From IMG/VR virus record IMGVR_UViG_3300035661_000043, positions 1-64,000 of that record: a stretch of 64,000 nt of DNA, one strand, 5' to 3'. Made by a program: the position numbers and the translations under genes. The DNA comes from a virus. Below the pieces are notes generated by a model. The model was not told where the DNA came from. It saw only the letters and a program-made list of their open reading frames with translations, and searched no databases. Positions 8,716 to 57,609 of the stretch are shown here, piece after piece (the stretch's first letter is position 1; every line of letters begins with the position of its first letter).

Positions 8716-9353
8716 CACTAAGACTCCTAAATTCTGCTTATACATCAGAGAATCTCCTGTACGAGAGTCTTATCACAGAGGCTGTCGAAATGCATGGCGA
8801 TGACTTCATGTACATACCGAGAACATTTGTCGCTAAGGATGAAGTTCTCGGAGAAGACAGACTCAGCAAGTTCAAGAATTCATATCCAGTAGTGATGTAT
8901 CTTGAATCTATCGACGGATTTGAGGGTCAAGGTGCAATGATGTCCAAGTTCGGACTTCAGATGGATCAACAGGCAACACTGACTGTGGCAAGAAGAACTT
9001 GGGATCAAACTGTGGGTCAATATGGTCAAACGATATTACCGAATAGACCTGCAGAAGGTGATCTAATCTATTACCCACGAACAAAAGCACTACTCGAGAT
9101 TATGTTCGTGCAGCACCTCAATCCTTTCTATCAGTTGGGCCAATTGTACGTTTATAAACTGACAGTTGAGAAATTCCGTTACTCAAGTGAGAAACTAGAG
9201 ACTGGTGTTACTACTATTGATGCATTCAATGATCTAGCCACAACAGGTGCGGCGAATGTTGAAACTCCTCAGTCATTTGGTGATAATACTAAGCTCAAGA
9301 CCAAAGCATAGCAGTTTGTTTTTGATACAAACAATCCTTTCGGTTAGATTTAA
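8712..9353 (+). CDS. gp14: Neck protein gp14
   Basis: GFEGQG..SKFGL and RPAEGDLIY motifs; the C-terminal NPFG is reached only through TAG. Confidence 0.9.
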
Positions 9354-10535: not shown

Positions 10536-10676
10536 TTTGAACATATAGGATATTGCAATACGAATCGTATCAAGATTCATTATATTTGGGAAAAAGATTT
10601 TCATGAGAATAAAGAAGCAACAATAGAATTATGCAAAAATTATCTGATTCAGTATAGAGAAAATTTACAGAAGTAA
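10536..10676 (+). pseudogene. Endonuclease C-terminal remnant between intein halves
   Basis: Translates as IKIHYIWEKDF..KEATIELCKNYL (Vsr/DUF559-like tail); no start codon. Confidence 0.55.
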
Positions 10677-11389
10677 TAGATGTAGATTTCTTAGAGGTAG
10701 AAACAGATTCTGGATATCAACCAGTGTCATCTGTTAATACCACTGAGATCTATGAGATCTATGAGATCTATTTCGAATCTGGAAATATGATTCAATGTGC
10801 AGATAATCATATATTCATTGCAACAGATGGCGGTGAAATTTTTGCTAAAGATTAGATTGGAATGTGTCTTCTTACTAAGAATGGGACAGATAAAGTAATA
10901 AAAGTCATTGCAACTGGTGTATTTGAAGAAATGTATGATCTATCTGTAGATTAGGAAGATCATACGTATTATACAAATGGTATATTAAGTCATAATTCGA
11001 CCATTATGGCTGCAATTATGTGTCATTATATTATCTTCAATGATAGTAAGACATGTGCTATTCTTGCTAACAAAGCAGCTACTGCAAGGGAAATCTTATC
11101 TCGTGTTCAATTAGCTTATGAACACTTACCTAAATGGTTACAGCACGGAGTAATTGAGTGGAATAAAGGGTCTTTTTTACTTGAAAATGGATCTAGAGTT
11201 CTTGCTGCATCTACTTCATCCAGTGCAATTCGGGGATTTTCTTGTGTTTAGGGAGACACAAAAATAACACTAAGAAACAAAAAAACTGGTGAAATCAAAG
11301 AAATAGAAATCAATAAGCTACCATAGATGATGAATGAAAATGCAAATTCATCTAAGGAGCCAAATGATATTACAATTCGATTTCAATGA
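10631..11389 (+). CDS. gp17: Terminase large subunit, piece 2 (IntC-1, middle extein, short IntN-2)
   Basis: YYTNGILSHN/STI junction, then LANKAATAREIL..AIRGFS/CV*GDTKI; TGA at 11387. Confidence 0.85.
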
Positions 11390-11497
11390 ACTAATGAAAA
11401 TACAGGGTCTACAAGAACATAAAAGAAACTATACAATGTTTCTCAACTGAAGCTCCGGATAAAATATAGCCATTGAATAAGAAAACAAAAGATTTAC

Positions 11498-12844
11498 ATG
11501 CTACAAAATAATCAATCGCTGATAGATAATGATGAATGGGAAGTTCTTACTCCATCTGGGTGGCAAGACTTTTCTGGTATACTGATAACAGAAAATCAAG
11601 ATACCATCACTTTAGACTCAGGATTAACTTGCACAGAAAATCACAAAGTATTGAGAGCCGGAGTGTGGGTAGAAGCAAAATAGATAAATCACACAAAGAA
11701 TGTTAATCAAACCGTGTATGACTTAACTGATGTGACGAATGGTCATGCATATTATACAAACTCGGATATTAGTCATAATTGCAATTTCCTAGCACTGGAT
11801 GAATTTGCATTTATTCACCCCAATGTAGCAGAAGATTTCTTCGCATCTGTTTATCCTACTATTTCATCAGGTAAAACTTCAAAATTGATGATCATTAGTA
11901 CACCTAATGGTATGAATTTGTTCTATAAGATGTGGATGGATGCACTATCTGGGTCAAATGGTTTCATGCCTGTAAAGGCGATTTGGTCTGATATTCCTTC
12001 TAGAGATCAAAAATGGGCAGATGAACAGAAAGCAGTTCTGGGAGAAGTTAAGTTCTAGCAAGAATGTGAGTGTAACTTTATTGGTGCTAGCAATACACTT
12101 ATTTCTGGCAATAAACTGAGAACTATCCCATTTGAAAAGCCAATTGCTATATCACCAACTCTTCGTGTGTACGATGAACCCAAGCCCGGAAATTCATATG
12201 TAATGAATGTGGACACTGCAAGAGGGACAGGTAATGATTATTCTTCATTTACTATTATCAATGTCACATAGTTGCCATATAAAGTTGACGCTGTATATGC
12301 AGACAATGAAGTTAGCCCACTGCTTTTCCCAGGTATTATATTGAATCTGGCTAGAAAATACATTAATGCATCAGTATTAATAGAAACCAATGATATTGGA
12401 GAAAGTATAGCATCTTCTCTGTATTATGATTATGAATATGAAGAAGTTATTATGTCAGACAGCAAAGGTGGAATGTAGGCATTTGGTGGAGAGAAACCAG
12501 GGCTGAGAACTACTAAAAAGACAAAATCAGTAGGATGTTCTGTCCTCAAGACATTGATTGAAAATGATCAATTAATCATTCGCGACTCCGAGATTCTATA
12601 TGAGTTATCAAATTTTGCTCTAAAGGGATCATCATACGAGGCGGAGAACGGACATGATGATAGAGTAATGACACTCGTTCTTTTTGCATACCTTACTACT
12701 CAGAGTGTTATGACCGAATTGACAAGTTAGTAGGCAAAAGCAAGAATTATTGAACTGAGACAGAAACAAACAGAAGATGCAATGATGCCGGCAGGATTCT
12801 TTTCTGATGGGACAGAATCTGAATCAGATACATTTCATTTCTAA
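11498..12844 (+). CDS. gp17: Terminase large subunit, piece 3 (IntC-2 plus C-extein with Walker B and nuclease domain)
   Basis: YYTNSDISHN/CNFLALDEFAF, STPNG, VDTARG and HDDRVM motifs; 449 codons to TAA. Confidence 0.88.
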
Positions 12845-15739: not shown

Positions 15740-17902
15740 ATGTCTAATCCAATATTCAATTTTTTCGGGTTCTAGATCAAACGATCTGAAGAGGAGAAAC
15801 AGCTTCCTAAATCAGTTGTTGCTCCAAATCTAGCAGATGGTTCTATTGTTATTAATCAGAACTTGGGAACTGGTATTCTCGGAGACTCTTATACTCTTGC
15901 ATTTGACCCAGACGGTCAGATCACAAATGAGATCGATCTCGTTCGTAGATATAGAGAATTGTGCAGATATCCAGAAGTAGCAGAAGCTATTGAAGATATC
16001 GTTAACGAAGCAGTGATTATCGAAGGTGAAGATAAACCTGTTGAAATCAATCTTGAGTATCTTAAGATCTCAGATTCAATCAAGAAAAAGATCACAGAAG
16101 AATTTGCCAAGATTCTTTCACTGATGAACTTCAATGAAGAAGGGTATGATCTATTTGAAAGATGGTATGTGGATGGGAAGATCTTTTTCCATATATTACT
16201 GGATGAAAATCATTCAAATGGTATCAAAGAGCTAAGATTAATTGACCCACGTAAGATCAAGAAGATCAAGAATGTGATCAAAGAGAAATTAGCAAGTGGT
16301 GTAGAGATTGTCAGGGAAGTACAAGAATATTACATATACAATGACAAGGGTATTGCAGGCGGCACTAGTCAGGGTGTAAGATTAAGTGTTGATTCTGTTG
16401 TGTACTGCCATTCAGGTCTGATTGATTCACAAACTGGATTAGTTCAATCATATTTGCATAAAGCAATCAAACCTGCTAACCAATTAAAAATGTTGGAAGA
16501 AGCGGTTATTATCTACAGATATACTCGTGCACCAGAGCGTAGGGTATTCTATATTGATGTTGGAAATTTACCAAAAGGTAAAGCTGAGCAATACGTCAGT
16601 GATATGATGAATAAGTTCAAGAACAAGTTATCATATGATGCTGTTACTGGGGAATTGGCAGATTCTAAGAGACACTTGTGTTTGGATATGAGCACACAAG
16701 TACCATTGCTTGATGGCAGAACACTGTCTATTTCCGAGATTGCTGCAGAGATGGATCAATCAGATAAACCTCTATGGGCATATTCATGTGATCCAGTGAC
16801 TGGCAAATTTGTGCCGGGTAAAATTACCTGGGCCGGTGTATCTAGACCAAATGCACAAGTCATGCGTATTACTCTTGATAATGGAAAAACCATTACTTGC
16901 ACCCCAGATCACAAATTTCCAGTTTGGGACAAGGGATTCGTAAAAGCTGAAGATCTATATATTGGCGAATCAATGATCCCGCATTATACTCGTTGGAAGG
17001 AAATTGCTAAGGGTTCTTCCAAGAATTACGAACAAATTTTCGAGAATGATACTGGAGAATGGAAATTCACACATCAAGCAGTATCCGATTGGAAAGATTG
17101 TATTACATCGCGCCGTTCATCTACATCATGTGTTTCTTCTGATAACAGTGCAGATAGACAAATTGATTCTCTAATGTTCCGTAACCATAAAATTGCAAAA
17201 ATTGAGTGGTTAGAAGAAACAATGGACACTGGATGTCTGACTATTGACGGAGATGAAGAATTCCACAATTATCATACATTCGCTCTATCTGCCGGAATTT
17301 ACACCCAGAACTAGATGATGGAAGATTTCTGGATGCCTAGGCGCGGAGATAAATCAACAGAAATCACGACACTTCCAGGGGGTCAGGGTCTCGGTCAGTT
17401 GGATGATTTGGATTATTTCAAGGATAAACTATATCGTTCTTTAAATGTACCTAAATCTAGATTCGTTCCAGATAGTGGTTTCTCTATTGGTAGATCAGAT
17501 ACTATTTCTAGGGATGAAGTAAAATTTGCTAAATTTGTTGGCAAATTGCGCAACAAATTCGGAAATATCTTTTTAGATATATTGCGCGTTCAATTGATTT
17601 CTAAGGGTATTTTCTCTAGTAAAGATTGGGAACAATTTAAAGAGAAGATTAAAGTCATTTACGCTAAAGATAACTTCTTTGCCGAATTAAAAGAAAATGA
17701 AGTTCTTACTACTAGACTTTAGACTGCATTGCAATTGGATCCATTTGTCGGCAAATATGTAAGCAAAGAATACATCCAAAGAAAAGTACTAAGATTCACA
17801 GATGATGAAATAAAAGAAATAAATACACAAATGGAAGCCGAGATCAAATCTGGTGATATTACTGACCCAGTAGCAATGATGCAAGAACCACCTCAGGCAT
17901 AA
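15740..17902 (+). CDS. gp20: Portal protein gp20 with a cis intein
   Basis: RAPERRVFYIDVGNLPK, EDFWMPRR and TEITTLPGG motifs; 3 TAG. Confidence 0.95.
16679..17311 (+). mobile_element. Mini-intein (211 aa) in gp20
   Basis: Starts CLDMST, has block B TCTPDHKF, ends GIYTQN; the +1 codon is TAG. Confidence 0.9.
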
Positions 17903-25153: not shown

Positions 25154-26056
25154 ATGACCGGTAATGATTTAGCTGATATGTTATCCAAGTCTGGATACAA
25201 AATAAAGTCGAAAACAAGTACATCTGTTGTTGTATTAGTATCTGGAAATCGCCTTAATGCTATGAAAGAGTTAGCTGTAAAATTACACAATCTAGGTGCT
25301 GTAATGGATCCGAATGCAAAGGGTTAGTAGATCGGTGCCATTATGATTGATAAAATTAAGGTATTAGTAAAATCAGATGGGAAGACTGGTGGGCTAGATG
25401 TAGAATAGGCGGCTATTGAATCTTTAACTAATGCTATAAATGGGGCATTATGTCAGGCTGGAGAGCCAATTACTATTAAAATGCCACATCGAACAGTATC
25501 TGGGATCGTTGGTGTAGAAAAAACTGCTGGCACACCTAAGTAGGATTTTCACTTAGTAGATGAAAATGATAGACCTGTAGTTTTCATCTCTCATAAAAAA
25601 GGTTCTAAACCAAATGATTTTCAACAATGGGGTGGCATGACAGAAAAAGAAATTGCTGCTCATAAAGAAGTAATCCAATTCGCTTTGGAATGTAGAGCTA
25701 GCCCGCATGTTGGATAGAAGATACCTTAGGGTATGTCTGTGTATAAGAAAATAAAAAGTAATGATCTAAAGATGATGTAGGTATTTGGTGTCAATTCTCT
25801 AAGATAGAATGGTAATGATATCAATTCCGTAGATGTACTAATCCAAGGAGACCCGGGTGTCAAATTTATATCTGGAGTTACATTTGAATTAACGGGTACA
25901 GGTCACATACATTATTACGGCGATATCCCTAGTGGCGGATTTGAACCAGTTTTAGCATGCATATATAAAGGTGACAGAGATCAATTCGGTATTAAAGGTG
26001 CAAGATTTTCTATCTATCCATTCGCAGGAAGAAATTTTAAGGTCCAATTGAAATGA
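25154..26056 (+). CDS. PD-(D/E)XK restriction-fold-like protein (about 8 TAG; absent from the ORF track)
   Basis: 301 codons ATG to TGA; GTPK*DF..VFISHKKG..FQQWGG motif. Confidence 0.7.
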
Positions 26057-31079: not shown

Positions 31080-32786
31080 ATGATTATCTTCGAAAGTATA
31101 AGAATCAAGAACTTCCTCAGTTACGGCAATGCATGGACTGAATTAAATCTCAGACAGGGAAAAGTACTAGTTGCAGGTGCCAATGGGGCAGGAAAATCTA
31201 CTATGGTAACTGATGCTCTGTAGTATGCACTATTCGGTAAGCCATTTCGTAAGATCAATATCCCACAATTGATCAACTCTATCAACCAGAAGGATTGCCA
31301 GGTAGAACTAGATTTCTAGATTGGCAAGGATTCTTACCAAATTAAGAGAGGGATGAAACCGGGGAAGTTCGAAGTATACAAAAATTCAGAATTGATAAAA
31401 CAGGAAGCAGCAACAAAGGATTATCAATAGTATCTTGAGCAGCAAGTGCTGAAGATAAATCATAAGACGTTTGTACAGATTCTTGTTCTTGGTTCTGCTG
31501 TTTTTACTCCTTTTATGCAATTAGCAGCCGGTCATAGAAGAAATGTGATTGAAGATCTTCTAGATATCAATGTTTTCAGCACTATGCTTAGATTGCTTAA
31601 GGAAAAGATTCAAGTCAATAAAGAAGAAACTCTAATCATCAATGGTAAACTAGAATCAGCTAAGAAGGAATAGATTGCACAGAAAAGACTCATTGAAACA
31701 TTGAGTTCTAAGAGTGATGATCAATTGGTAATTCTGTATTCTGAACTCACATAGTTACAGAACGATATAGTATCGGCAAAATAGAAGAGAAATGATGTAC
31801 ACAAATTACTTGAATCTATCCAGATTCCTGACTTTATGTCAGAAGAATTAGAAGATATAAGAGTTGAATTCAATACACTGAAAAAGTAGATTCAATCAGA
31901 TATCAAGAAGATAGATTCAGTCTCCGCTATTCATTCATGCCCAACATGTTTACAGTCTGTAACTGATGATCACAAAGTAAGAATCAAGACTGAACTAAAA
32001 TATAAGTATGATCAACAGAAACCGAAGCTAGATCAGTATTCTAAAAAAGTTGAAGAACTGACTACACAGAAAGAATTGTTTGATACAGCAAAGATCGAAC
32101 AGCAGAAAATGTTGAAAGAACTTGCTGCGATAGACCAGAAAATAATTTCCCTTGAAGAACAAGAATCTTCCACACGAGTGAAGATCGAGACACAGAAACA
32201 AAGTTCTTCTGCAGACTTGGAAAAAGAAAAAGATCGACTCAGAGATTTAGCACAATCTGCTCTTATGTTGATTGAACGCAAGAACGAATTGATCACAGAG
32301 AAATAGATTCAAGAAGTCTCTCTAGGTCTTCTGAAGGACACAGGTATTAAGGCTAGTATCATCAAAGAATACCTGCCGATTCTCAATAAGATGATCAACA
32401 AGTATCTATCTGAGTTCGACTTTTTCATTAATTTTGTATTGGATGAAAATTTCAATGAACAGCTGTTGAGCAGAGGAAGAGATTCGGCTTAGTACTTCTC
32501 TCTATCAGAGGGTGAAAAGAAGCGAGTAGATGTTGCAATTCTTCTCGCATTCAGGCATATTGCTTCTCTAAAGAATTCTGCAAAGATCAATTTGCTTGTT
32601 CTTGATGAACTTGATTCTGGGTTGGATCACGACTCTCGTTTGAAGTTGCTAGAATTGATCCAGACTATGGATTCCGATGTCTGGATGGTCTCCCACTCTA
32701 TACAGAACACTGAACTTGAACAGCAGTTCGATAAGGTGACTTTTGTAATGAAGAAGGGAGATTTTTCAGAAATGATCATCAAGTGA
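31080..32786 (+). CDS. gp46: Recombination ATPase gp46 (Rad50-like; many TAG)
   Basis: KNFLSYGN, GANGAGKST, CPTC hook, SEGEK and LDE motifs. Confidence 0.95.
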
Positions 32787-49532: not shown

Positions 49533-49608
49533 CTCTCGTTGGCGTAATCTGGTAGCGTTCCTGGTCTGGATCCAGGGGGTCTGAGTTCAAATCTTAGGCG
49601 GGAGACCA
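49533..49608 (+). tRNA. tRNA-Pro(TGG)
   Basis: Cloverleaf, loop TC-TGG-AT, CCA. Confidence 0.8.
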
Positions 49609-49648
49609 CAGTTCATTAACATTATGTTCTTGACTAAGTTTTTAGTAT

Positions 49649-49726
49649 CCGTGATTCGCCTAGTCTGGAATGGCACTCCATCTGGGGTGGAGAATAACGC
49701 AGGTTCGAATCCTGCATCACGGACCA
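49649..49726 (+). tRNA. tRNA-Pro(TGG)
   Basis: Cloverleaf, loop TC-TGG-GG, CCA. Confidence 0.8.
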
Positions 49727-49749
49727 GTTTTTAGAAGAAAGTAGTAAGT

Positions 49750-49837
49750 GGAGGTGCTGAGCATAAGTGAGCTCAACTGACTGTAAATCAGCCGCATCAT
49801 CAATAAGCCTGTGTAGGAGCGTTACCTGCCGCCTCCA
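49750..49837 (+). tRNA. tRNA-Tyr(GTA), atypical, no encoded CCA
   Basis: CT-GTA-AA loop and long variable arm. Confidence 0.65.
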
Positions 49838-49956
49838 CTTACTACTTTCATATTCCCATAATTTGTTAACTTAAAAGGAAGAACATCACGAAACGTGGTA
49901 AATGTAAGTGACACTCAGATGTCTGGGTTGTCACGTTAATTCAAAATATGTGTCAC

Positions 49957-50031
49957 CCCTCTAAAGTGTTACGGCTGCACAGCGGACTCTTACTCCGACA
50001 AGTCTGGATTCGAGTTCCAGTGGAGGGACCA
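49957..50031 (+). tRNA. tRNA-Lys(CTT)
   Basis: CT-CTT-AC loop, CCA. Confidence 0.75.
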
Positions 50032-50035
50032 ATAT

Positions 50036-50111
50036 GGGACTATAGTTTAATGGTTAAAACATCACCCCTTTAAGGTGTAAGCTCTCGGTTCGAATCCGAG
50101 TAGTCCTACCA
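50036..50111 (+). tRNA. tRNA-Lys(TTT)
   Basis: CC-TTT-AA loop, GGTTCGAATCC, CCA. Confidence 0.8.
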
Positions 50112-50240
50112 TTCATATAGTAAGACCATCGACGGGTGCCATACTGCAGATTACAGCAGTCAACATTCGGTGCTCCTGCCAGGGTGCGAAAAGCTGGGTT
50201 GGCAGACTCGGCAAATTATTGATGGTCTTACTATATGAAT
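50111..50240 (+). ncRNA. Unknown structured RNA closed by a perfect 20-bp inverted repeat
   Basis: ATTCATATAGTAAGACCATC / GATGGTCTTACTATATGAAT. Confidence 0.55.
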
Positions 50241-50280
50241 GAATTTTGCCCGGTTAGCTCAAATGTAGAGCAATCGACCA

Positions 50281-50415
50281 GATCCAAAGAATAATTATAA
50301 AGCATTGCAAGATAAAGAAAAGATAAAATCTGTAATCAAACAAAATGAAGTTAATTTGAAGATCGTATTGAATCATCAATTGACTTTATTACATATAAGA
50401 AGCCTCTGTAGTTAA
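50281..50415 (+). pseudogene. Homing endonuclease C-terminal remnant following a tRNA 5' half
   Basis: DPKNNY..DKEKI..V..QN..HQL matches the C-terminus of 51486-52340. Confidence 0.7.
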
Positions 50416-50475
50416 ATGGTATAACGGGCGCTTGATAAGCGCTTATTGTATGTTCAATTCATACCAGAGGTACCA
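50402..50475 (+). tRNA. tRNA-Ile(GAT)
   Basis: TT-GAT-AA loop, CCA. Confidence 0.8.
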
Positions 50476-50483
50476 AGAATAAT

Positions 50484-50555
50484 GGGGTTACCGTATGGGA
50501 CGGACTCGGGGTTTGCAACCTTGATGATGCGGATCGTTACCGCATAACTCCACCA
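50484..50555 (+). tRNA. tRNA-Ala(TGC)
   Basis: G3:U70 pair, TT-TGC-AA loop, CCA. Confidence 0.7.
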
Positions 50556-50667
50556 CAGGATAATAGAAATCCTAGGTATCTATAAGGGCTTGCCCTAGAT
50601 CATGAACACGGGATCCTTTCCACGAGGGTTTAGTGTAATGTCTCCGGCACAATCCACCAATTTTAAT

Positions 50668-50742
50668 GCTGAAGTAGTTTAACTGGAAAAATCGCCCTTT
50701 GGTATGGGGCAGTCATGGGGTCAGTTCCCATCTTCAGCTCCA
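50668..50742 (+). tRNA. tRNA-Thr(GGT)
   Basis: TT-GGT-AT loop, CCA. Confidence 0.75.
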
Positions 50743-50854
50743 ATCCGCCTCCACTTACTACTTTCATATTCCGTTCACTCCCGGATATGGTAAAGGTCTC
50801 TGGCTGTTAACCAGAAGGGAGTGTGGGTATCATTGTATCCTAGACAGTATTTTT

Positions 50855-50930
50855 AGCCTTAAGAGTGAATGAGATTCCTATCTCTATGACATAGAGATGA
50901 TGCGAGGTGCGACTCCTCGTTAGGCCACCA
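50855..50930 (+). tRNA. Degenerate tRNA-Val(GAC)
   Basis: AT-GAC-AT loop, T arm and CCA; mismatched acceptor stem. Confidence 0.45.
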
Positions 50931-50936
50931 GTTTTC

Positions 50937-51007
50937 GGTTCTAAGATTTTACGTAAGCATACCACTTCTTAGAAGTGGAGGAGAGAGATCGTTACTCTCT
51001 AGAACCG
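50937..51007 (+). tRNA. tRNA-like element with loop TCTTAGA (TTA or TAG anticodon)
   Basis: Perfect acceptor, anticodon and T stems; poor D arm; no CCA. Confidence 0.4.
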
Positions 51008-51066
51008 TCCGAAATTCTAGCTGCAGGAGTAATTTCCTGTCTAGACCCGGGAAGTCATGACCCCGG

Positions 51067-51164
51067 GACCTCGTAGTGATGGAATGGTAGACATAGGCTC
51101 GTATAGTGATCCGGTGGAAATAAACGCCACATGCAGGTTTCGAAGTCCTGCCTACAATGAGGTT
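51067..51164 (+). ncRNA. tRNA-Leu-like ncRNA, copy 1
   Basis: D-loop GGAATGGTAGACA, T arm and bulged closing helix; paralogue at 53722. Confidence 0.65.
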
Positions 51165-51194
51165 AAGTAAACATGATGTCATGAGTTTTAAGAT

Positions 51195-51269
51195 GCCTCC
51201 GAGGTGTTGGTGATTACATCTCTGACTTCCACTCAGATGTATCCGGTTTGACTCCGGACGGAGGCTCCA
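51195..51269 (+). tRNA. tRNA-Gly(TCC)
   Basis: CT-TCC-AC loop, U73, CCA. Confidence 0.8.
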
Positions 51270-51283
51270 GTTTTGATTAGTAA

Positions 51284-51359
51284 TGTGTGATAGCTCAGTT
51301 GGTAGAGCAGATGGTTGTTACCCATCAGGTCGAGGGTTCGAAGCCTTCTCACACAGCCA
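51284..51359 (+). tRNA. tRNA-Asn(GTT)
   Basis: TT-GTT-AC loop, G73, CCA. Confidence 0.85.
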
Positions 51360-51410
51360 AATTTTATATGCCCTTATAGCTCAGTTGGAAGAGCAACAAA
51401 AAAAATATAT

Positions 51411-51485
51411 TCTCTTAAAGCATAGATAGCGATGCAGGGGTCTTGTAAACCTCAGAGGAGCGCGCAAGTCGTTCTGGGAGAACCA
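51411..51485 (+). tRNA. tRNA-Thr(TGT)
   Basis: CT-TGT-AA loop, CCA; atypical T loop. Confidence 0.65.
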
Positions 51486-52340
51486 TCACAATAAAGTTTG
51501 TATATATTCCCAACTCAGTTGGTGCTTATTTAAGATATGAACTATGACATTATTTTCTTCCATAACTTTTGAAATTTTTTCTGTGTCTATGGATATTAGA
51601 TAATCGTTTTTAGGATCTAAATACACATCATATTCTACTAGGTAAAAATCTGCAAAGTATTTTTTAGTACCATATCTCAGATAAGATGGTCTAGTCCAAT
51701 TGATATTGTTAGAATCTAATTCGGTTGCGATTTTATATTCATAAGAAGATTCTAACCAGACTTTTCCAGCAAATCTAGATTCATACCAACCCCAGGCTTT
51801 ATTGTTTTTATTTCCACCAAGAGCCGGATTTGATTTTGCTGTTTCTGATAATCTTTTGAGATAACATTCCTTTGAACAAGTTTTTCTGTCTCCTGGGAAG
51901 CATTTATTGCAAACACAACACCAAGAAACATAAGTAAATTTTAATTTTTCTCTATTAGTTTTTGTTTCATTGTGTTTTGTTTTTATTTTTTGTAGTTTTG
52001 GTCCGATAAAAGCAGGTCTATTACATTTTTCTCTTTTTCTATTTGTATAAGAAGCAGCACATGAATGAGAACAATATTTGTTATTTCTTGCCTTCATTGA
52101 TTTAGGTTTTCCACATTCACATAGATTCGGATTTGAATTATATTCGGCTATGCGTGCGGCTGCTTTTGCCTTTTGTGTAATGTGATTCTATTTGCTAGCT
52201 TTGCCTGCTTTAATCTTCTAAAGTTTTCCAGCTTCAGTGTGCGCTGCGATAAAATGAGAAAAGATACCTTTGGAAGATTTGATTTCTCTACATTCTAAAC
52301 AGGAGACTAGAGGAGATAGATATTTGTCTTCGACTGTCAT
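51486..52340 (-). CDS. PD-(D/E)XK (TnsA-like) homing endonuclease with Zn-binding motifs; 2 TAG
   Basis: YCSHSC and ESSYE..W.RP..YFADFYL..LDPK motifs; 285 codons. Confidence 0.75.
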
Positions 52341-52620
52341 AGTTGTTACCTTAATAAATAAAAATGATATGGGACAGCTTGGTTGTTACCTTACTGGGTT
52401 GAATGATACGCCAATATCATTCTAACCATATCTATGTATACAAATTAGTTCTTGAGGGTCCGGGATTCGAATTCTCGTGAGGGCACCAAGTTTTGATTAG
52501 TAATGTCTTTAGCGAGAGAGTCTAGTAGACACAGATTGTTCTTCGGTGTTATACGAGATGATCTTGTCACTCAATAGTAGGAGAACATGAGGAGTGGCCT
52601 ACTAATCAGATTTATTTTAT

Positions 52621-52696
52621 TGCGGCGTGGAGAAGTAGTATCTCATCAGTCTCATAAGCTGAAGGTCGTCTGTGCGATTCAGACCGTTCGCAACCA
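52621..52696 (+). tRNA. tRNA-Met(CAT), initiator-like
   Basis: CT-CAT-AA loop; ends CGCAACCA. Confidence 0.7.
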
Positions 52697-52966
52697 CTTT
52701 ATTTTGTATTACTTCGAATGCTGTTTCTGGAGTGTAAGATCTATCTTCAAAGATGAGAACTTCCAAACCAACTGCTTCGAATTCATTTATTTCAATTCTA
52801 TCTCGGTTTTGTACTTGCAACAGAGAGTGTTGTTAATCGACTCAATGAGGCTTTACTCTGCCCGAAGAATATCAGTGAGTTTATCTCAGTGCTACACGTC
52901 TTTCAACAGTGAAAATCTTTTCAATCTTTTCAATCATTCCTTAGCTCAGGAACAATTAATTTTAAT

Positions 52967-53040
52967 GCTGCGTAGTCCGAAAAGTGAGGGCGCGACTTGA
53001 TAAGGCGCTGGCAGATGGGGCAGTACCATCACGCAGCACC
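52967..53040 (+). tRNA. tRNA-Ile(GAT), atypical
   Basis: Acceptor GCTGCGT/ACGCAGC and TT-GAT-AA loop. Confidence 0.5.
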
Positions 53041-53209
53041 CATTTTCAATAGGAAGTATGAGGATCATTACCTCGTAATAGGTGTAACTATACTTTGTAT
53101 TTCCACCGTAGACTTGGTGTCCCGGAACTGCGCGCGCCGGAAGACGGTTCGATTCCGTCGTTAAAAGGTTTATGTTAGGTTCGATTCCTAACCGGTGGCC
53201 TACTTATTA

Positions 53210-53575
53210 TGTGCGATATCTCTATCGCACATCAGAATGACTGTATGGATCTTCGGATCTGTGAAGTTGAAAGAAATGTGTTCAGGAAGCGAGTTCGAGT
53301 CTCGCCAGCTCCACCAGAAGTATATCATCTGATGCATTCTGTGTGCTGTATATATTGCAAGTATTCAGTATACTTCTGATGGGGCTGTATTGGTTTCGAC
53401 TGGGCAATGAGTATGGAGATGGACAGTTTGGCAACGCAGAAGCCATTATGATTGGGTCTTCCCGGTTGAAGAAGCAAACAAAAGTAAAAGCAAACGCTGA
53501 TACATTCCTGATGGCGGCTTGATCGCCCAGTGAGGATTCCTTGGGTGTTCCTTATTACCAAAACACCCATCCTAA
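53210..53575 (+). ncRNA. ssrA: Circularly permuted (two-piece) tmRNA
   Basis: T arm and CAGCTCCACCA (ending 53316) precede GGGGCTGTATTGGTTTCGAC (53381); tag ANADTFLMAA-TGA at 53490-53522; outer ends approximate. Confidence 0.9.
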
Positions 53576-53580
53576 TATAC

Positions 53581-53668
53581 GGAGAGTGGACCTGCAGGGT
53601 GCAGGCGCTGTTTGCTAAACAGTTGGTGTCAGGAATGGCATTCCGGTCGGGACGGACTCTCTCCTCCA
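53581..53668 (+). tRNA. tRNA-Ser(GCT)
   Basis: GGAGAG acceptor, TT-GCT-AA loop, long variable arm, U73, CCA. Confidence 0.75.
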
Positions 53669-53721
53669 AAATTCTTTCTAAGAGCTGATCCCTCTTAGTT
53701 AGACAGGAGTTATAACTCCTG

Positions 53722-53825
53722 GGCCCGTAGTGATGGAATGGTAGACATAAGCCCACGTGGGCTGGTGGGATAAACCCCGGGGTTTAAACCCCACGTACAG
53801 GTTCGAGTCCTGTCTACAATGGGCC
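53722..53825 (+). ncRNA. tRNA-Leu-like ncRNA, copy 2
   Basis: Same architecture as 51067, with compensatory changes. Confidence 0.65.
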
Positions 53826-53835
53826 AAATAATTAT

Positions 53836-53910
53836 AGATTCTAGGGTGTGATAGCAGCACGATTCCCTCATAAGGAATAGGACTCCGAGCGTAACGGATA
53901 GAATCTACCA
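53836..53910 (+). tRNA. tRNA-Met/Ile(CAT), atypical
   Basis: ATTCC-CTCATAA-GGAAT arm, CCA. Confidence 0.55.
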
Positions 53911-53929
53911 AATGACAGACTTCTTTGGT

Positions 53930-54004
53930 GTGATGTTAGCTTAACAGTAAAGTCCGAGAATGTGACTCTCGTGGATATGGATGCGACTTCCATACATCAC
54001 CCCA
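53930..54004 (+). tRNA. tRNA-His(GTG)
   Basis: AT-GTG-AC loop, C73, CCA. Confidence 0.75.
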
Positions 54005-54632
54005 AAGAAGTTTTAATGCTCCGGCTCCTCTGTCAATTTTTCAATGATGAAAGTTCATCATGACTACTACCAAAGAAACCCAAGACAACGCATCATTTGT
54101 ACAGATGGCAATGATGTGAAAAGTAAATGGAAAGCTTTTATTCATTCCTGTGATATAATACATTCATGGAAACGAACGATGACTGGAAACGCGAATTCTT
54201 CTACTATCGTCAATTTCGAGTTTGGGTTGGTGAAAGATAGTGAAGGCAACCAAATTGGTGATACTGAATACTTTCCAACAAAACTCTCACAGTGACCTGG
54301 AAAGAGGAAGTTGTTAACTATACTTCCTCTTCATAGTAAGCAGAAGGTGGATCTATGTACAGTAGCACGCACTTGACATTCTTATTTTTAATGAGTAAAT
54401 CATGATCATCAAAGCTAATGTTTCTGTGTGTGATATCACAGATAGGAACTACGGTAAGTATATCGAAGGTGCTGCAGCTATTGCCGTGGTGCAACCGGTC
54501 GCTGGTGTGCTGTACTCTGGTTTGGTCCTGAGTATATTGCAGAGAATGATTTGAAGATCACCTCTCGTGAAGAAGCAGTTAAGAAGATTGAAGCACTGGG
54601 AGATCAGGTAGATTCTTAAAGAAAGATAAATT

Positions 54633-54896
54633 GCAAATTTAGCTCAATGGTTAGAGCAGCGGACTCATGAAAAATTGTGCACCTAGGTAGGGATGCTTAG
54701 TGTGAATGTTGTCAAATTCGAAGAAACCTAAGTCAGAAATGATATGGTAACCTCGAGCCAAGCCTGAGAAATTAGGTGCTGTGTAGAGACTAGACGGCAA
54801 CCATCTAGAACAGATGAAGGTATAGTCCAGGGAGTGGCGAAAGTCACACAAACCAGAATCCGTTGGTTACAGGTTCGAGTCCTGTAATTTGCACCA
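54633..54896 (+). tRNA. tRNA(CAT) (Ile2/Met) interrupted by a group I intron
   Basis: Exons 54633-54668 and 54857-54896 join into a perfect cloverleaf (GCGGA-CTCAT^AA-TCCGT). Confidence 0.9.
54669..54856 (+). mobile_element. Group I intron (IC3, Azoarcus type), 188 nt, no ORF
   Basis: P/Q/R/S elements AAATTCG..AAACC, CGAGCCAAG, GTAGAGACTAGACGG and GGTATAGTCC; terminal G. Confidence 0.93.
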
Positions 54897-54940
54897 AGAA
54901 TTAATGCGAGGTTGGTATAGATAGATGGTAACCTCTTAAA

Positions 54941-55015
54941 CGCACCGTGGCTGAAATGTTAGGCAGTGGATTGCAAATCCACTTTATGAGATCTCAGAAT
55001 TCTCCGGTGTGTCCA
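54941..55015 (+). tRNA. tRNA-Cys(GCA)
   Basis: TT-GCA-AA loop, U73, CCA; atypical T arm. Confidence 0.7.
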
Positions 55016-55134
55016 TATTTTTCAGTAAGTGACTAAGAAATAATCTATCTCTGATGTTCGTATAATGAGCTGTTTCTCTTAGTTAGAAGATAAGAGAATA
55101 TTGAACAACCCATTGTATTTGTTCTTAAAAATTC

Positions 55135-55209
55135 GGGTCTGTGGTGAAACGGAAATCATAAGAATCTTCTAAATTCCTGTTCCAAGTTCGATTCTTGGCA
55201 GACCCACCA
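55135..55209 (+). tRNA. tRNA-Arg(TCT)
   Basis: CT-TCT-AA loop, CCA. Confidence 0.85.
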
Positions 55210-55307
55210 TTTAATATTGGAAGTAGCTCAATTGGTAGATCACAGACTCGAGTATGAAGATGAGACGGATCGCCGTAGTAAATGGGCTATCCAATTGACC
55301 GTTTAAT

Positions 55308-55382
55308 ATACCCTTAAGATAATGGCAGTCGTCAGGTCTCCAAAACCTTGAAGTCGCGGTTCGAGTCCGTGGGGTTATGCCA
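55308..55382 (+). tRNA. tRNA-Trp(CCA)
   Basis: CT-CCA-AA loop, G73, CCA. Confidence 0.75.
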
Positions 55383-55666
55383 TAATATAATACAACTATA
55401 GTTTAGTTTGGAGATGTAACTTACATCTCGTCTCCGGATAGCTGCTCCATGTTCGAATCTCTCTAGGTGTTCCGATATTCGGTGATTGATCCCAGTCATC
55501 GCTGGGCATACACTGGAAATGTATCGGTCTGTATGAAACTGGATTCGTGTCGGTAACGACTATCTCCTCCATCTTAAAGCCCCGATGCTGAAAGATATTT
55601 GAACTTTTATTCAGTCCGGTGATATAATTCATCCACACCACAACAAAACACTGAAAGAGGTAGTAT

Positions 55667-56122
55667 ATGAAGAATGGTGAATTATTGTCAAAGGCTATCA
55701 TTATTGCGACAAACGCACATGCTGGACAATTTGATAGGGGTGGTACTCCATATATCCTGCACCCACTGCGAGTGATGTCATACTTGGAGGATGCAGACGA
55801 GGAACTCCAGTGTATTGCAGTTTTACACGATGTAGTAGAGGACACCTCTGTTACTTGGAAAGATCTTATCGAAGCAGGTATGACTCAACGAATCATCAGT
55901 GCTCTAAGATTGCTGACAAAGCTTTCCGGTCAGACACCGGATGAATACAAAGCAGGAGTTCTTTCTTCTGTGGATGCGATGAAGGTGAAAATGTGCGACT
56001 TGCGTCACAATTCTGATGTCCGCAGGTTGAAAGGCGTCTCTGAAAAAGACATAGCAAGAACTGCAAAGTATCACATGTTCTATATGGAAATCAAATCTGT
56101 TTTAGAACAAAGCAGAATTTGA
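55667..56122 (+). CDS. HD-domain (p)ppGpp hydrolase-like protein (SpoT-HD/SAH family)
   Basis: AHAGQ..PYILHPLRV, LHDVVEDT and VKMCDLRHN motifs. Confidence 0.88.
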   Translation: MKNGELLSKAIIIATNAHAGQFDRGGTPYILHPLRVMSYLEDADEELQCIAVLHDVVEDTSVTWKDLIEAGMTQRIISALRLLTKLSGQTPDEYKAGVLSSVDAMKVKMCDLRHNSDVRRLKGVSEKDIARTAKYHMFYMEIKSVLEQSRI

Positions 56123-56242
56123 CATGAAGGAAAATTGAACATTACTCTCACTTTAGCTGAACTCTAGTTTAGTGTAGTCGAGTCTTCTGTTTGTGATGTA
56201 GAATATTCACCGGATCTGATCCGTGCTACTGCCCAAGATAAT

Positions 56243-56319
56243 CCGCCGTTAGCGCAATTGGTAGGAGGCAACTGGCTTAAGACCAGTACAGTGTGGGTTC
56301 GAATCCTCACGGCGGACCA
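56243..56319 (+). tRNA. tRNA-Leu(TAA) with short variable loop
   Basis: ACTGG-CTTAAGA-CCAGT arm, CCA. Confidence 0.8.
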
Positions 56320-56339
56320 TGTATTATGAAAGAGTGAAA

Positions 56340-56699
56340 ATGAAAGACATCCTAGGTCGCGAAGTTCATGTTGGTAATTATATTGCCTATGCTCAGGTTG
56401 CCGGTAGATCTGCTAATATGGCAATTTACAATGTCATCGCCATTGTCGGTGATTACCATGGTACTATCAAGGCGACGAAACTAGTAGAGAGCTATGGAGA
56501 TTATGCTCCATCTCGAATGTGTACTCTCACATCTGGAAAGGTAATTCCATGGCGATATGCGACACACACGAAAGATGTATGGAAACTTATTGAAATGACT
56601 CCAGAAGAAAAAGATGCAGTAGATAACAAGACATTCACTCTGAAGATCGGAGAGAGAATCATTATCCTCGATAATTTTACTCCAGATGTAGTAAAATAA
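56340..56699 (+). CDS. Hypothetical protein
   Basis: MKDILGREVHVG N-terminus common in phage proteins. Confidence 0.6.
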   Translation: MKDILGREVHVGNYIAYAQVAGRSANMAIYNVIAIVGDYHGTIKATKLVESYGDYAPSRMCTLTSGKVIPWRYATHTKDVWKLIEMTPEEKDAVDNKTFTLKIGERIIILDNFTPDVVK

Positions 56700-56784: not shown

Positions 56785-57459
56785 ATGTCTCGACATCTTA
56801 TGTTACAATGTCTTTTCAGCACACCTCTTTGGTCTTCTAATAAAATGGAAGACTTTCAAGAGAAGAAAAAAGCGATTATTCCATATCTATTGGATGATAA
56901 TAACTACATTCTTTCTGGGAAAAAGAATGGACTTTTGATCACAGATGCAAATTTACACAAGAATGCTGAATTCCGTGATATCTATAATTTCATGCGGATG
57001 AATGTATACAAAGCAATGCAAGAACTAGGTTTTCAGCCTAGATTCACTGTGACAAGTATGTGGGCAACAAAACAAGAATCATTTGCATATCATCACTTGC
57101 ACACTCACCGGAATTCTTTTCTCGGATCGGTGATGTATATTCACACAGACTCACCTACTAGTGGTACTACATTTGTTAATCCAACTGCTAGCATGTGGCA
57201 GTTGGAACCTGCATATCACGGTGGGTCTATGCCTCTTATTGCGAATTCATTTACTACAGACTTTGAAGAAGGTTCTGCTCATGTGTTTCCTGGGTGGCTG
57301 CAACACTATACAGAACCTAGTAAGTCTTCGTGTAGGATTGTCATTGCGATGAACATAATGCCTGTAGGTGGCACGAATAGAGATCACTACGATCGATATG
57401 AGTTCCCATCGGATATGAATTTGTTAGAAATAGAAAAAAATGTATTTCATCCCAGCTAA
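56785..57459 (+). CDS. 2OG-Fe(II) oxygenase (TIGR02466-like)
   Basis: SMWAT..HHLHTHRNS.LGSVMY and FPGWLQH..RIVIAMN motifs. Confidence 0.85.
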   Translation: MSRHLMLQCLFSTPLWSSNKMEDFQEKKKAIIPYLLDDNNYILSGKKNGLLITDANLHKNAEFRDIYNFMRMNVYKAMQELGFQPRFTVTSMWATKQESFAYHHLHTHRNSFLGSVMYIHTDSPTSGTTFVNPTASMWQLEPAYHGGSMPLIANSFTTDFEEGSAHVFPGWLQHYTEPSKSSCRIVIAMNIMPVGGTNRDHYDRYEFPSDMNLLEIEKNVFHPS

Positions 57460-57519
57460 AGTATGTTATAATTACTCAACAACAAAAGAGAAACACTCTT
57501 TCTAACTTAATAGTTTAAT

Positions 57520-57609
57520 GGAAGTTTGGCAGAGTGGTTTATTGCCGCGGACTCTAAATCCGCTGAATCAGAGATGGTTCCACGAGTTCGAATCTCGTAA
57601 CTTCCTCCA
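57520..57609 (+). tRNA. Amber-decoding tRNA (anticodon CTA) with a serine-type body
   Basis: GGAAGTT/AACTTCC-T-CCA acceptor, GCGGA-CTCTAAA-TCCGC anticodon arm, long variable arm GAATCA-GAGA-TGGTTC, T arm GTTCGAATC. Confidence 0.93.

Follow-up and report, generated by a model that had tools for sequence, protein, structure and literature searches.

We analysed the first 64 kb (hereafter the window) of the 79,755-bp linear virus contig IMGVR_UViG_3300035661_000043, and found computationally that TAG is used in this T4-like phage as a sense codon corresponding to serine (Ser) and that the phage encodes an intact, serine-like transfer RNA (tRNA) with the matching anticodon at a conserved position. 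This gene, hereafter tRNA(CUA), occupies positions 57520–57609 on the plus strand and is a class II tRNA with serine-type features, the anticodon CUA and an encoded CCA end (ARAGORN, Rfam). We put at roughly 85% the probability that it is a serine-type class II tRNA that is charged by the host seryl-tRNA synthetase (SerRS) and inserts Ser at UAG. The contig represents about 45% of the genome (CheckV estimate) and carries the genes of a T4-like phage, with a T4 portal (gp20), a T4-type large terminase, UvsW, a gp46-like SMC ATPase and a DnaB-like helicase (Pfam). The major capsid protein shares 61% identity with its counterpart in Pelagibacter phage HTVC008M and 59% with the one in Methylophilales phage Melnitz. 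Public DNA runs in which the tRNA stretch is present come from metagenomes of microbial mats and sediments.

Reading through TAG turns the plus strand into a series of long, adjoining genes terminated by TAA or TGA. These genes tile only under such reading, which identifies TAG as a sense codon. In the genes from 1 to 46 kb we counted about 96 in-frame TAGs, among them 12 in a fibre-like gene, nine in the gp46-like recombination ATPase gene (31080–32786, plus strand; Pfam SMC_N and AAA_23), eight in the gene at 25154–26056, six in the helicase and six in the C-terminal part of the terminase. Homology to relatives extends across the in-frame TAGs, and no gene examined terminates in TAG. From 54000 to 79755 of the contig, in a block that takes in the topoisomerase genes and the genes around tRNA(CUA), nearly all plus-strand genes have no in-frame TAG, whether as sense codon or as terminator. 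Blocks with and without TAG thus divide the genome, and the tRNA(CUA) gene falls within a TAG-free block; a minus-strand open reading frame (ORF) at 71363–72388 with five TAGs is a possible exception to that block.

To read the residue at these codons, we collected 158 related loci from IMG/VR, ran tblastn with each gene against them and noted which codon the subject has wherever our phage has TAG. In the close band, defined as high-scoring segment pairs of at least 80% amino-acid identity (relatives L002, L003 and L094, IMG sample 3300048672), 40 TAG sites were covered, and the relative had TAG at 18, a Ser codon at 14, a glutamine (Gln) codon at five, and glycine, aspartate and histidine codons at one each. 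The 14 Ser codons were TCT (7), TCA (3), TCG (2), TCC (1) and AGT (1), most of them two or three substitutions away from TAG, which fits synonymous drift within the serine codons. As a control, genuine Ser codons that differ in the relative stay Ser in 72% of cases, and the differing TAG sites give Ser in 64% (14/22); Gln is found at 23% of those sites, versus 72% in Gln's own control. At 55–80% identity our TAG sites align with Ser codons 24 times, with TAG nine times and with Gln codons seven times. In the reverse view of that band, 25 TAGs of the relatives fall on codons other than TAG in our phage, and 14 of these encode Ser. Included in that band is L102, which represents a second TAG-using lineage, comes from a different sample and has 17 in-frame TAGs.

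A likelihood test, in which the substitution tables were learned from the same alignments and sites were down-weighted for non-independent homologs, gave Ser the top rank in each of the three identity bands. The next residue (threonine, alanine or Gln) was 22 to 35 natural-log (ln) units lower, and 95–98% of the site bootstraps picked Ser. In a comparison of gp46 with 120 database homologs, Ser occupies the TAG columns of strong conservation, with position 471 being Ser in 97 of 120 and position 198 in all 24 closest. Separately, five full-length database homologs of gp46 (P0004–P0008) have Gln at four or five of the nine TAG columns. This Gln may be a gene-caller translation of TAG under genetic code table 15, and if so, public protein sets hold Gln where Ser belongs.

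Chemistry gives a further constraint at one site. The TAG at 17312–17314 (plus strand) is the +1 residue of the intein in the portal gene gp20, where the reading is ...GIYTQN-TAG-MMEDFW. The intein starts at cysteine (Cys) and ends in ...GIYTQN, its penultimate residue being Gln and not the usual His. Protein splicing requires Cys, Ser or threonine at +1, which excludes Gln, tyrosine (Tyr), leucine (Leu), lysine (Lys), glutamate and tryptophan (Trp) at this codon. The residue preceding MMEDFW is Ser in 37 of 43 homologs, and the 95%-identical, intein-free L094 reads HL-S(TCA)-MMEDFW. Codon comparison, likelihood and the intein +1 residue together favour Ser over all other residues, in agreement with the protein-level evidence to which the first-pass annotation had appealed. 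Intein-like insertions (Pfam Intein_splicing) were seen in both the large terminase and the portal, within the stretches 10613–12844 and 15740–17902.

The tRNA itself is well formed. It is 90 nt long, ARAGORN reads its anticodon as cta at raw position 35, and the Rfam tRNA model scores it at 54.1 bits versus a gathering score of 29. The ARAGORN drawing is a canonical cloverleaf with a 7-bp acceptor stem and a 5-bp T stem (7/5), so that the earlier description of a 90-nt canonical tRNA with its anticodon CTA at 57554–57556 is borne out. The acceptor pairs are G1-C72, G2-C71, A3-U70, A4-U69, G5-C68, U6-A67 and U7-A66. The D stem pairs G10-C25, C11-G24, A12-U23 and G13.U22, with GG in the D loop; the anticodon stem has 5 bp and its loop reads CUCUAAA, that is, C-T-CTA-A-A in the DNA by ARAGORN and by direct reading (plus strand). 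The variable region (57564–57581, plus strand) is 18 nt long and consists of a U, a 6-bp stem GAAUCA/UGGUUC, a GAGA loop and a C, both in the ARAGORN drawing and in the RNAfold minimum-energy structure. The T loop is UUCGAAU, and the gene closes with discriminator U73 and the encoded CCA at 57606–57609 (plus strand; direct reading, ARAGORN). In contigs from three further DNA runs (microbial mat, sediment) the tRNA(CUA) stretch was unchanged wherever covered; two of them had no difference at all over the stretch, and the third had one difference that was not located. The CTA anticodon is therefore not an assembly slip.

Two other tRNA classes were considered for this body. ARAGORN labels the gene tRNA-Pyl because the anticodon alone sets that label. 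The body of tRNA-Pyl has a 3-nt variable loop, a small D loop without GG and a 6-bp anticodon stem; the long variable arm, the GG in the D loop, the 5-bp anticodon stem and the UUCGAAU T loop led us to reject it. Nor did the window tRNA(CUA) show the allo-tRNA or tRNA-Sec-like shape with an 8-bp acceptor and a 4-bp T stem (8/4), as it is 7/5.

In a BLAST search of 50,697 phage records, tRNA(CUA) had six full-length matches at 71–76% identity, of which four were annotated, all as tRNA-Ser, and two were unannotated. Partial matches to its 5' half included tRNA-Ser of Bacillus phages and tRNA-Tyr of phAPEC8. We also extracted 35 long tRNAs (at least 80 nt) from nine tRNA-bearing phage loci and aligned them globally to tRNA(CUA); the six best were all tRNA-Ser (scores 38–43), ahead of the best tRNA-Tyr (30.5) and the best tRNA-Leu (26). 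Ordinary phage tRNA-Ser, such as those of R29Z (Ser-GCU), Vettismorki (Ser-UGA) and RVTF4 (Ser-UGA), are 71–77% identical to tRNA(CUA) along the full length and share with it a near-identical D arm, a long variable arm, the GGAAG or GGAGG start of the acceptor and, in several cases, U73. They differ from it in reading serine codons, whereas the window tRNA(CUA) reads a stop codon.

The identity set of Escherichia coli SerRS comprises G1-C72, G2-C71, R3-Y70 and C11-G24, with G73 as the canonical discriminator. G1-C72, G2-C71, A3-U70, C11-G24 and the long variable arm, all claimed for this gene beforehand, can be read from the ARAGORN cloverleaf. U73 occurs in annotated tRNA-Ser of Vibrio phage R29Z, the T4-like Erwinia phage Vettismorki, Bacillus phage Bastille and Pseudomonas phage RVTF4; A73 was found in every Leu and Tyr tRNA examined, so U73 argues against both of those identities. 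Mukai et al. give the SerRS signature as a long variable arm plus G73 or U73 (PMC5389517).

Several observations pull the other way. The discriminator is U73 and not the G73 of canonical bacterial tRNA-Ser, and in one E. coli test reported by Mukai et al. Ser was inserted only by the G73 variant of an allo-tRNA (PMC5389517). Profile hidden Markov models with the anticodon masked favour Ser, scoring tRNA(CUA) at 61.1 bits for Ser, 17.5 for Tyr and 15.7 for Leu with a leave-one-out accuracy of 19/22, but the Ser score is biased upward, since the small Ser set partly consists of the query's own best BLAST matches; the unbiased part of the evidence on tRNA type is the BLAST ranking. An identical anticodon stem-loop, with GTA for CTA, is present in the tRNA-Tyr of another phage (L004, L005), and when viral contigs were searched for precisely this anticodon arm, with the anticodon itself left free, all matches were tRNA-Tyr genes of unrelated phages. 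The D arm is also similar to that of phage tRNA-Tyr. At the protein level, Gln at 5/22 changed TAG sites of the close band is above the typical Ser-to-Gln exchange, which can be explained by CAG-to-TAG being a single transition. In the relative L086, whose neighbouring proteins are 66–88% identical to those of the window phage and which comes from the same sample as L002, L003 and L094, the tRNA(CUA) has a different body with an 8-bp acceptor and a 4-bp T stem, and the simple classifier leaves it unplaced, at 7.5 bits for Ser and 15.6 for Tyr. Finally, a contig of about 45% of the genome leaves room for a second decoder or a phage synthetase elsewhere. A search for the class II synthetase core (PF00587) and the RF-1 domain (PF00472) found neither in the 79.7-kb contig, an absence that holds for this ~45% of the genome and not for the whole phage. 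On balance, the serine type put forward in the first-pass annotation is supported by BLAST, by the nearest neighbours and by the masked-anticodon models, with U73 as a departure from the textbook SerRS set. No sister tRNA-Ser(CGA) was found, so the single CGA-to-CUA change proposed as its origin is a conjecture.

The L086 gene (91 nt, L086:11754–11844) lies between the same two genes as the window tRNA(CUA), and the two share the GGAAG...CUUCC-U-CCA end and the CUCUAAA loop. Rfam matches the L086 gene best to tRNA-Sec, with a sub-threshold 39 bits (gathering score 47). The body of the decoder thus differs (7/5 versus 8/4) between phages with a common code. In-frame TAG was found in 6 of 156 related loci, which confines the code change to a small subclade. 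A search pattern for class II CUA tRNAs with the GGAAG...CUUCCUCCA end matched L086 alone in viral contigs. In metagenome contigs it gave 25 matches, 24 of them by chance and one a tRNA(CUA) in L185. The latter (L185:1016–1108) is a serine-like, 93-nt class II tRNA(CUA) with a GGAAGGA...UCCUUCC-U-CCA end, on a 2.6-kb metagenome contig of 53% G+C outside this phage group.

We weighed three other accounts of the same data, all of which we judge far less probable than host SerRS charging and serine insertion. It is very unlikely that tRNA(CUA) is not a working decoder, being a relic or regulatory, with TAG read instead by a host tRNA, by a tRNA in the missing half of the genome or through wobble by the "tRNA-Stop(UUA)" that ARAGORN calls at 50036–50111. 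The incompleteness of the contig leaves space for this, whereas the tRNA(CUA) gene is intact, has its CCA end and a promoter-like motif of its own, is unchanged where covered in the further-run contigs and has its counterpart in the same slot of the TAG-using relative L086. The "UUA" tRNA is more simply interpreted as a tRNA-Lys(UUU), and Lys is 57 ln units worse than Ser. Even less probable is charging with another residue, chiefly Tyr (through G34-to-C, as in supF) or else Leu or Gln, which would give TAG that meaning. In its favour are the class II architecture common to bacterial tRNA-Tyr and tRNA-Leu, the Tyr-like anticodon stem-loop noted above, a 5' half 85% identical to tRNA-Tyr of phAPEC8 and, for Gln, the five Gln codons at changed sites together with the fact that recoded phages usually read TAG as Gln (Borges et al., 10.1101/2021.08.26.457843). 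However, the likelihood test placed Gln 25 to 36 ln units under Ser in the three bands and left Tyr and Leu outside the top seven, and the intein +1 chemistry excludes all three residues. The tRNA disagrees as well, with U73 against A73, a variable arm of 18 nt and a 6-bp stem against about 12–13 nt in Tyr tRNAs, and Tyr and Leu classifier scores far below that for Ser. Ambiguous decoding as both Ser and Gln was also considered and rejected as the principal interpretation, as a single transition separates CAG from TAG and Ser occurs at the rate of the synonymous control.

The least probable account holds that Ser is charged and then converted on the tRNA, by a tRNA-Sec, Sep-tRNA or Cys route, TAG then not being plain serine. 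SerRS charges tRNA-Sec too, the 8/4 body of the L086 tRNA(CUA) has tRNA-Sec as its best, sub-threshold match, and the intein +1 position is compatible with Cys. Against this, the window tRNA(CUA) has an ordinary 7/5, tRNA-Ser-like body, Cys falls 36 ln units short of Ser in the close band, TAG swaps with ordinary Ser codons in relatives at about the synonymous rate, and with about 100 sites in half a genome, many of which vary, a special residue is implausible.

The decoding by serine that we favour would proceed as follows. The tRNA(CUA) would be transcribed, possibly early, from its own sigma-70-like extended -10 promoter in the part of the genome that avoids TAG. Host SerRS would charge it with serine through the long variable arm and the acceptor stem, a step suggested by the fact that SerRS does not use the anticodon and by the precedent of the suppressor supD. 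The charged tRNA would then pair with UAG, outcompeting release factor 1, and place Ser at roughly 100 in-frame TAGs of replication and virion genes; its candidacy as the decoder follows from its being the only tRNA in the contig with a clear CUA anticodon. With TAG at the intein +1 position, portal maturation requires that Ser, Cys or threonine be inserted there.

A more tentative idea is that tRNA(CUA), placed behind a promoter of early type, not only decodes TAG but also serves as a timing switch, and that the decoder has been replaced while the code was kept. The genes of the tRNA(CUA) block use TAG neither as sense codon nor as stop and are thus readable under either code, and the 7/5 and 8/4 bodies in the same gene slot would reflect the replacement. 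If this is true, replication, recombination and virion genes need tRNA(CUA) before full-length products can be made, and splicing of the portal intein waits for Ser at TAG.

The surroundings of the gene agree with separate transcription. An extended -10 promoter-like motif, TGTTATAAT, was read directly at 57464–57472 on the plus strand, 48 nt upstream of the tRNA 5' end. The word TGNTATAAT has 18 copies in the window, without exception on the plus strand, versus 4.8 expected, and none of 100 shuffles reached 18; the other copies stand before replication-type and small early-type genes. The TGTTATAAT promoter was picked up by a search for the extended -10 motif but not by a sigma-70 scan requiring a -35 box. 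The sheath and tube genes and one head gene are preceded by the T4 late-promoter word TATAAATA. From the motif upstream of the tRNA and the placement of the late word, tRNA(CUA) appears to have its own promoter, of a non-late class. The gene lies 1.2 kb past the main tRNA cluster, with two protein genes between (56319–56699 and 56785–57459), so the earlier claim that it stands apart from the cluster behind its own upstream motif agrees with what we found.

TAG-to-Ser recoding has precedents. In phage T4, the laboratory mutant psu1+ has an altered anticodon in the phage tRNA-Ser and suppresses amber codons with serine, and is not a natural fixed code. The E. coli suppressor supD has G73, where tRNA(CUA) has U73. 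The parallel proposed here is that a serine tRNA body with a CUA anticodon, recognised by an anticodon-blind SerRS, gives Ser at UAG; supD (Su1) arose from a serine tRNA by one anticodon change and inserts Ser at UAG (Steege 1983, as cited in PMC4566969). supD is a laboratory suppressor in a context where TAG is still a stop, whereas here TAG is a regular sense codon at about 100 positions. Among natural phages, reassignment of UAG to Ser and to Gln in phages that encode Ser-tRNA(CUA) or Gln-tRNA(CUA) is credited to Ivanova et al. 2014 in a 2015 review (PMC4695839), and the phages so described resemble the present one in reading UAG as Ser with a phage-borne tRNA-Ser(CUA). Given that credit, the term "new code" in the first-pass annotation was overstated, and the finding is a well-supported further case of the known, rare and under-documented TAG-to-Ser phages. 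Borges et al. (10.1101/2021.08.26.457843) saw only TAG-to-Gln and TGA-to-Trp in phages with a code unlike that of the host, and recent surveys of recoded phages list only TAG-to-Gln and TGA-to-Trp or glycine. The "code 15" TAG-to-Gln phages (crAss-like, Lak, Garnet, Topaz) also have their own Sup-CUA tRNA and both TAG-rich and TAG-free gene blocks. They differ in the residue, which is Gln there and Ser here, and the class II tRNA of this phage would use SerRS, not GlnRS. In the work of Mukai et al. 2017 (PMC5389517), (8/4) tRNA-Ser and allo-tRNAs have G73 or U73 and unusual anticodons and include examples from alpha-proteobacterial phages; the L086 tRNA(CUA) has that 8/4 shape, in contrast to the canonical 7/5 of the window. 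A full-text literature search returned no description of TAG-to-Ser in a T4-like phage. Distinctive here are the T4-like phage, its microbial-mat and sediment setting, the U73 tRNA and the fact that one of the client codons is an intein +1 residue.

We know of no NCBI code table in which TAG means Ser, and gene callers and databases to our knowledge offer only TAG as Gln (table 15). Proteins from such phages are consequently either truncated at TAG or assigned Gln in place of Ser, also at catalytic positions such as the intein +1 residue. The core genes align to thousands of homologs, so this phage could be used as a benchmark for code-inference tools. With this finding the Ser variant also covers an environmental lineage of myoviruses, and the natural U73 tRNA-Ser(CUA) is a candidate suppressor.

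In the window ARAGORN found 13 tRNAs and a transfer-messenger RNA (tmRNA), tRNA(CUA) being the last tRNA. The main cluster (49533–56318, plus strand; ARAGORN, Rfam) contains 12 ARAGORN tRNAs, the permuted tmRNA and an intron-bearing tRNA. The tmRNA is of the permuted two-piece type (Rfam tmRNA_permuted), at 53257–53522 of the window with 94.7 bits and at L086:4198–4550 with 68.5 bits, and ARAGORN predicts the tag peptide ANADTFLMAA. Permuted tmRNAs are known from alpha-proteobacteria among other groups, which hints at an alpha-proteobacterial or similar host.

At 53581–53668 (plus strand) is a non-canonical 88-nt tRNA-like RNA with the loop UUGCUAA (anticodon GCU), a long variable arm capped by a GNRA loop and a U73-CCA end. 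Its termini are GGAGAGU...ACUCUCC-U-CCA, and its D and T arms are non-standard. Standard ARAGORN and Rfam searches missed it; the mitochondrial mode of ARAGORN reports Ser(gct). It is 93% identical to L086:4752–4840, with both flanks diverging sharply at once, and its fold z-score is -1.24. It is thus a conserved gene, plausibly for an odd tRNA-Ser(GCU). The end of tRNA(CUA) had been said to match that of the phage's own tRNA-Ser(GCT); the partner in this comparison, though conserved, is non-canonical and was missed by the standard finders.

The "tRNA-Stop(UUA)" call at 50036–50111 has the loop CCUUUAA in the Rfam alignment, which gives anticodon UUU and C33, is Lys(ttt) in the mitochondrial mode and adjoins a tRNA-Lys(CUU). 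It probably encodes tRNA-Lys(UUU), C33 being the unusual feature, and not an ochre suppressor, and is an unlikely decoder of TAG. A tRNA with anticodon CAT at 54631–54900 has an anticodon loop apparently split by a group I intron (Rfam Intron_gpI, 66.4 bits, 54657–54849). At 51366–52490, a tRNA 5' half, GCCCTTATAGCTCAGTTGGAAGAGCA..., and a matching 3' half, ...GGTCCGGGATTCGAATTCTCGTGAGGGCACCA, stand about 1.1 kb apart, and the insert, which has a minus-strand ORF at 51486–52340, is possibly an intron with a homing endonuclease. Odd tRNA shapes recur in this phage group, with long variable arms on tRNAs with Asn, Pro or Met anticodons and some tRNA-Leu genes of 77–78 nt with a short variable region; odd shapes were located at L086:2089–2173, 2792–2881 and 9028–9115 and at 56242–56318 of the window. 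tRNA-like elements at 49730–49860 and 50110–50240 of the window lie between long inverted repeats, for example AGTAGTAAGTGGAGG...CCTCCACTTACTACT, and a weak Rfam tRNA match (26.3 bits) was obtained at 49750–49837.

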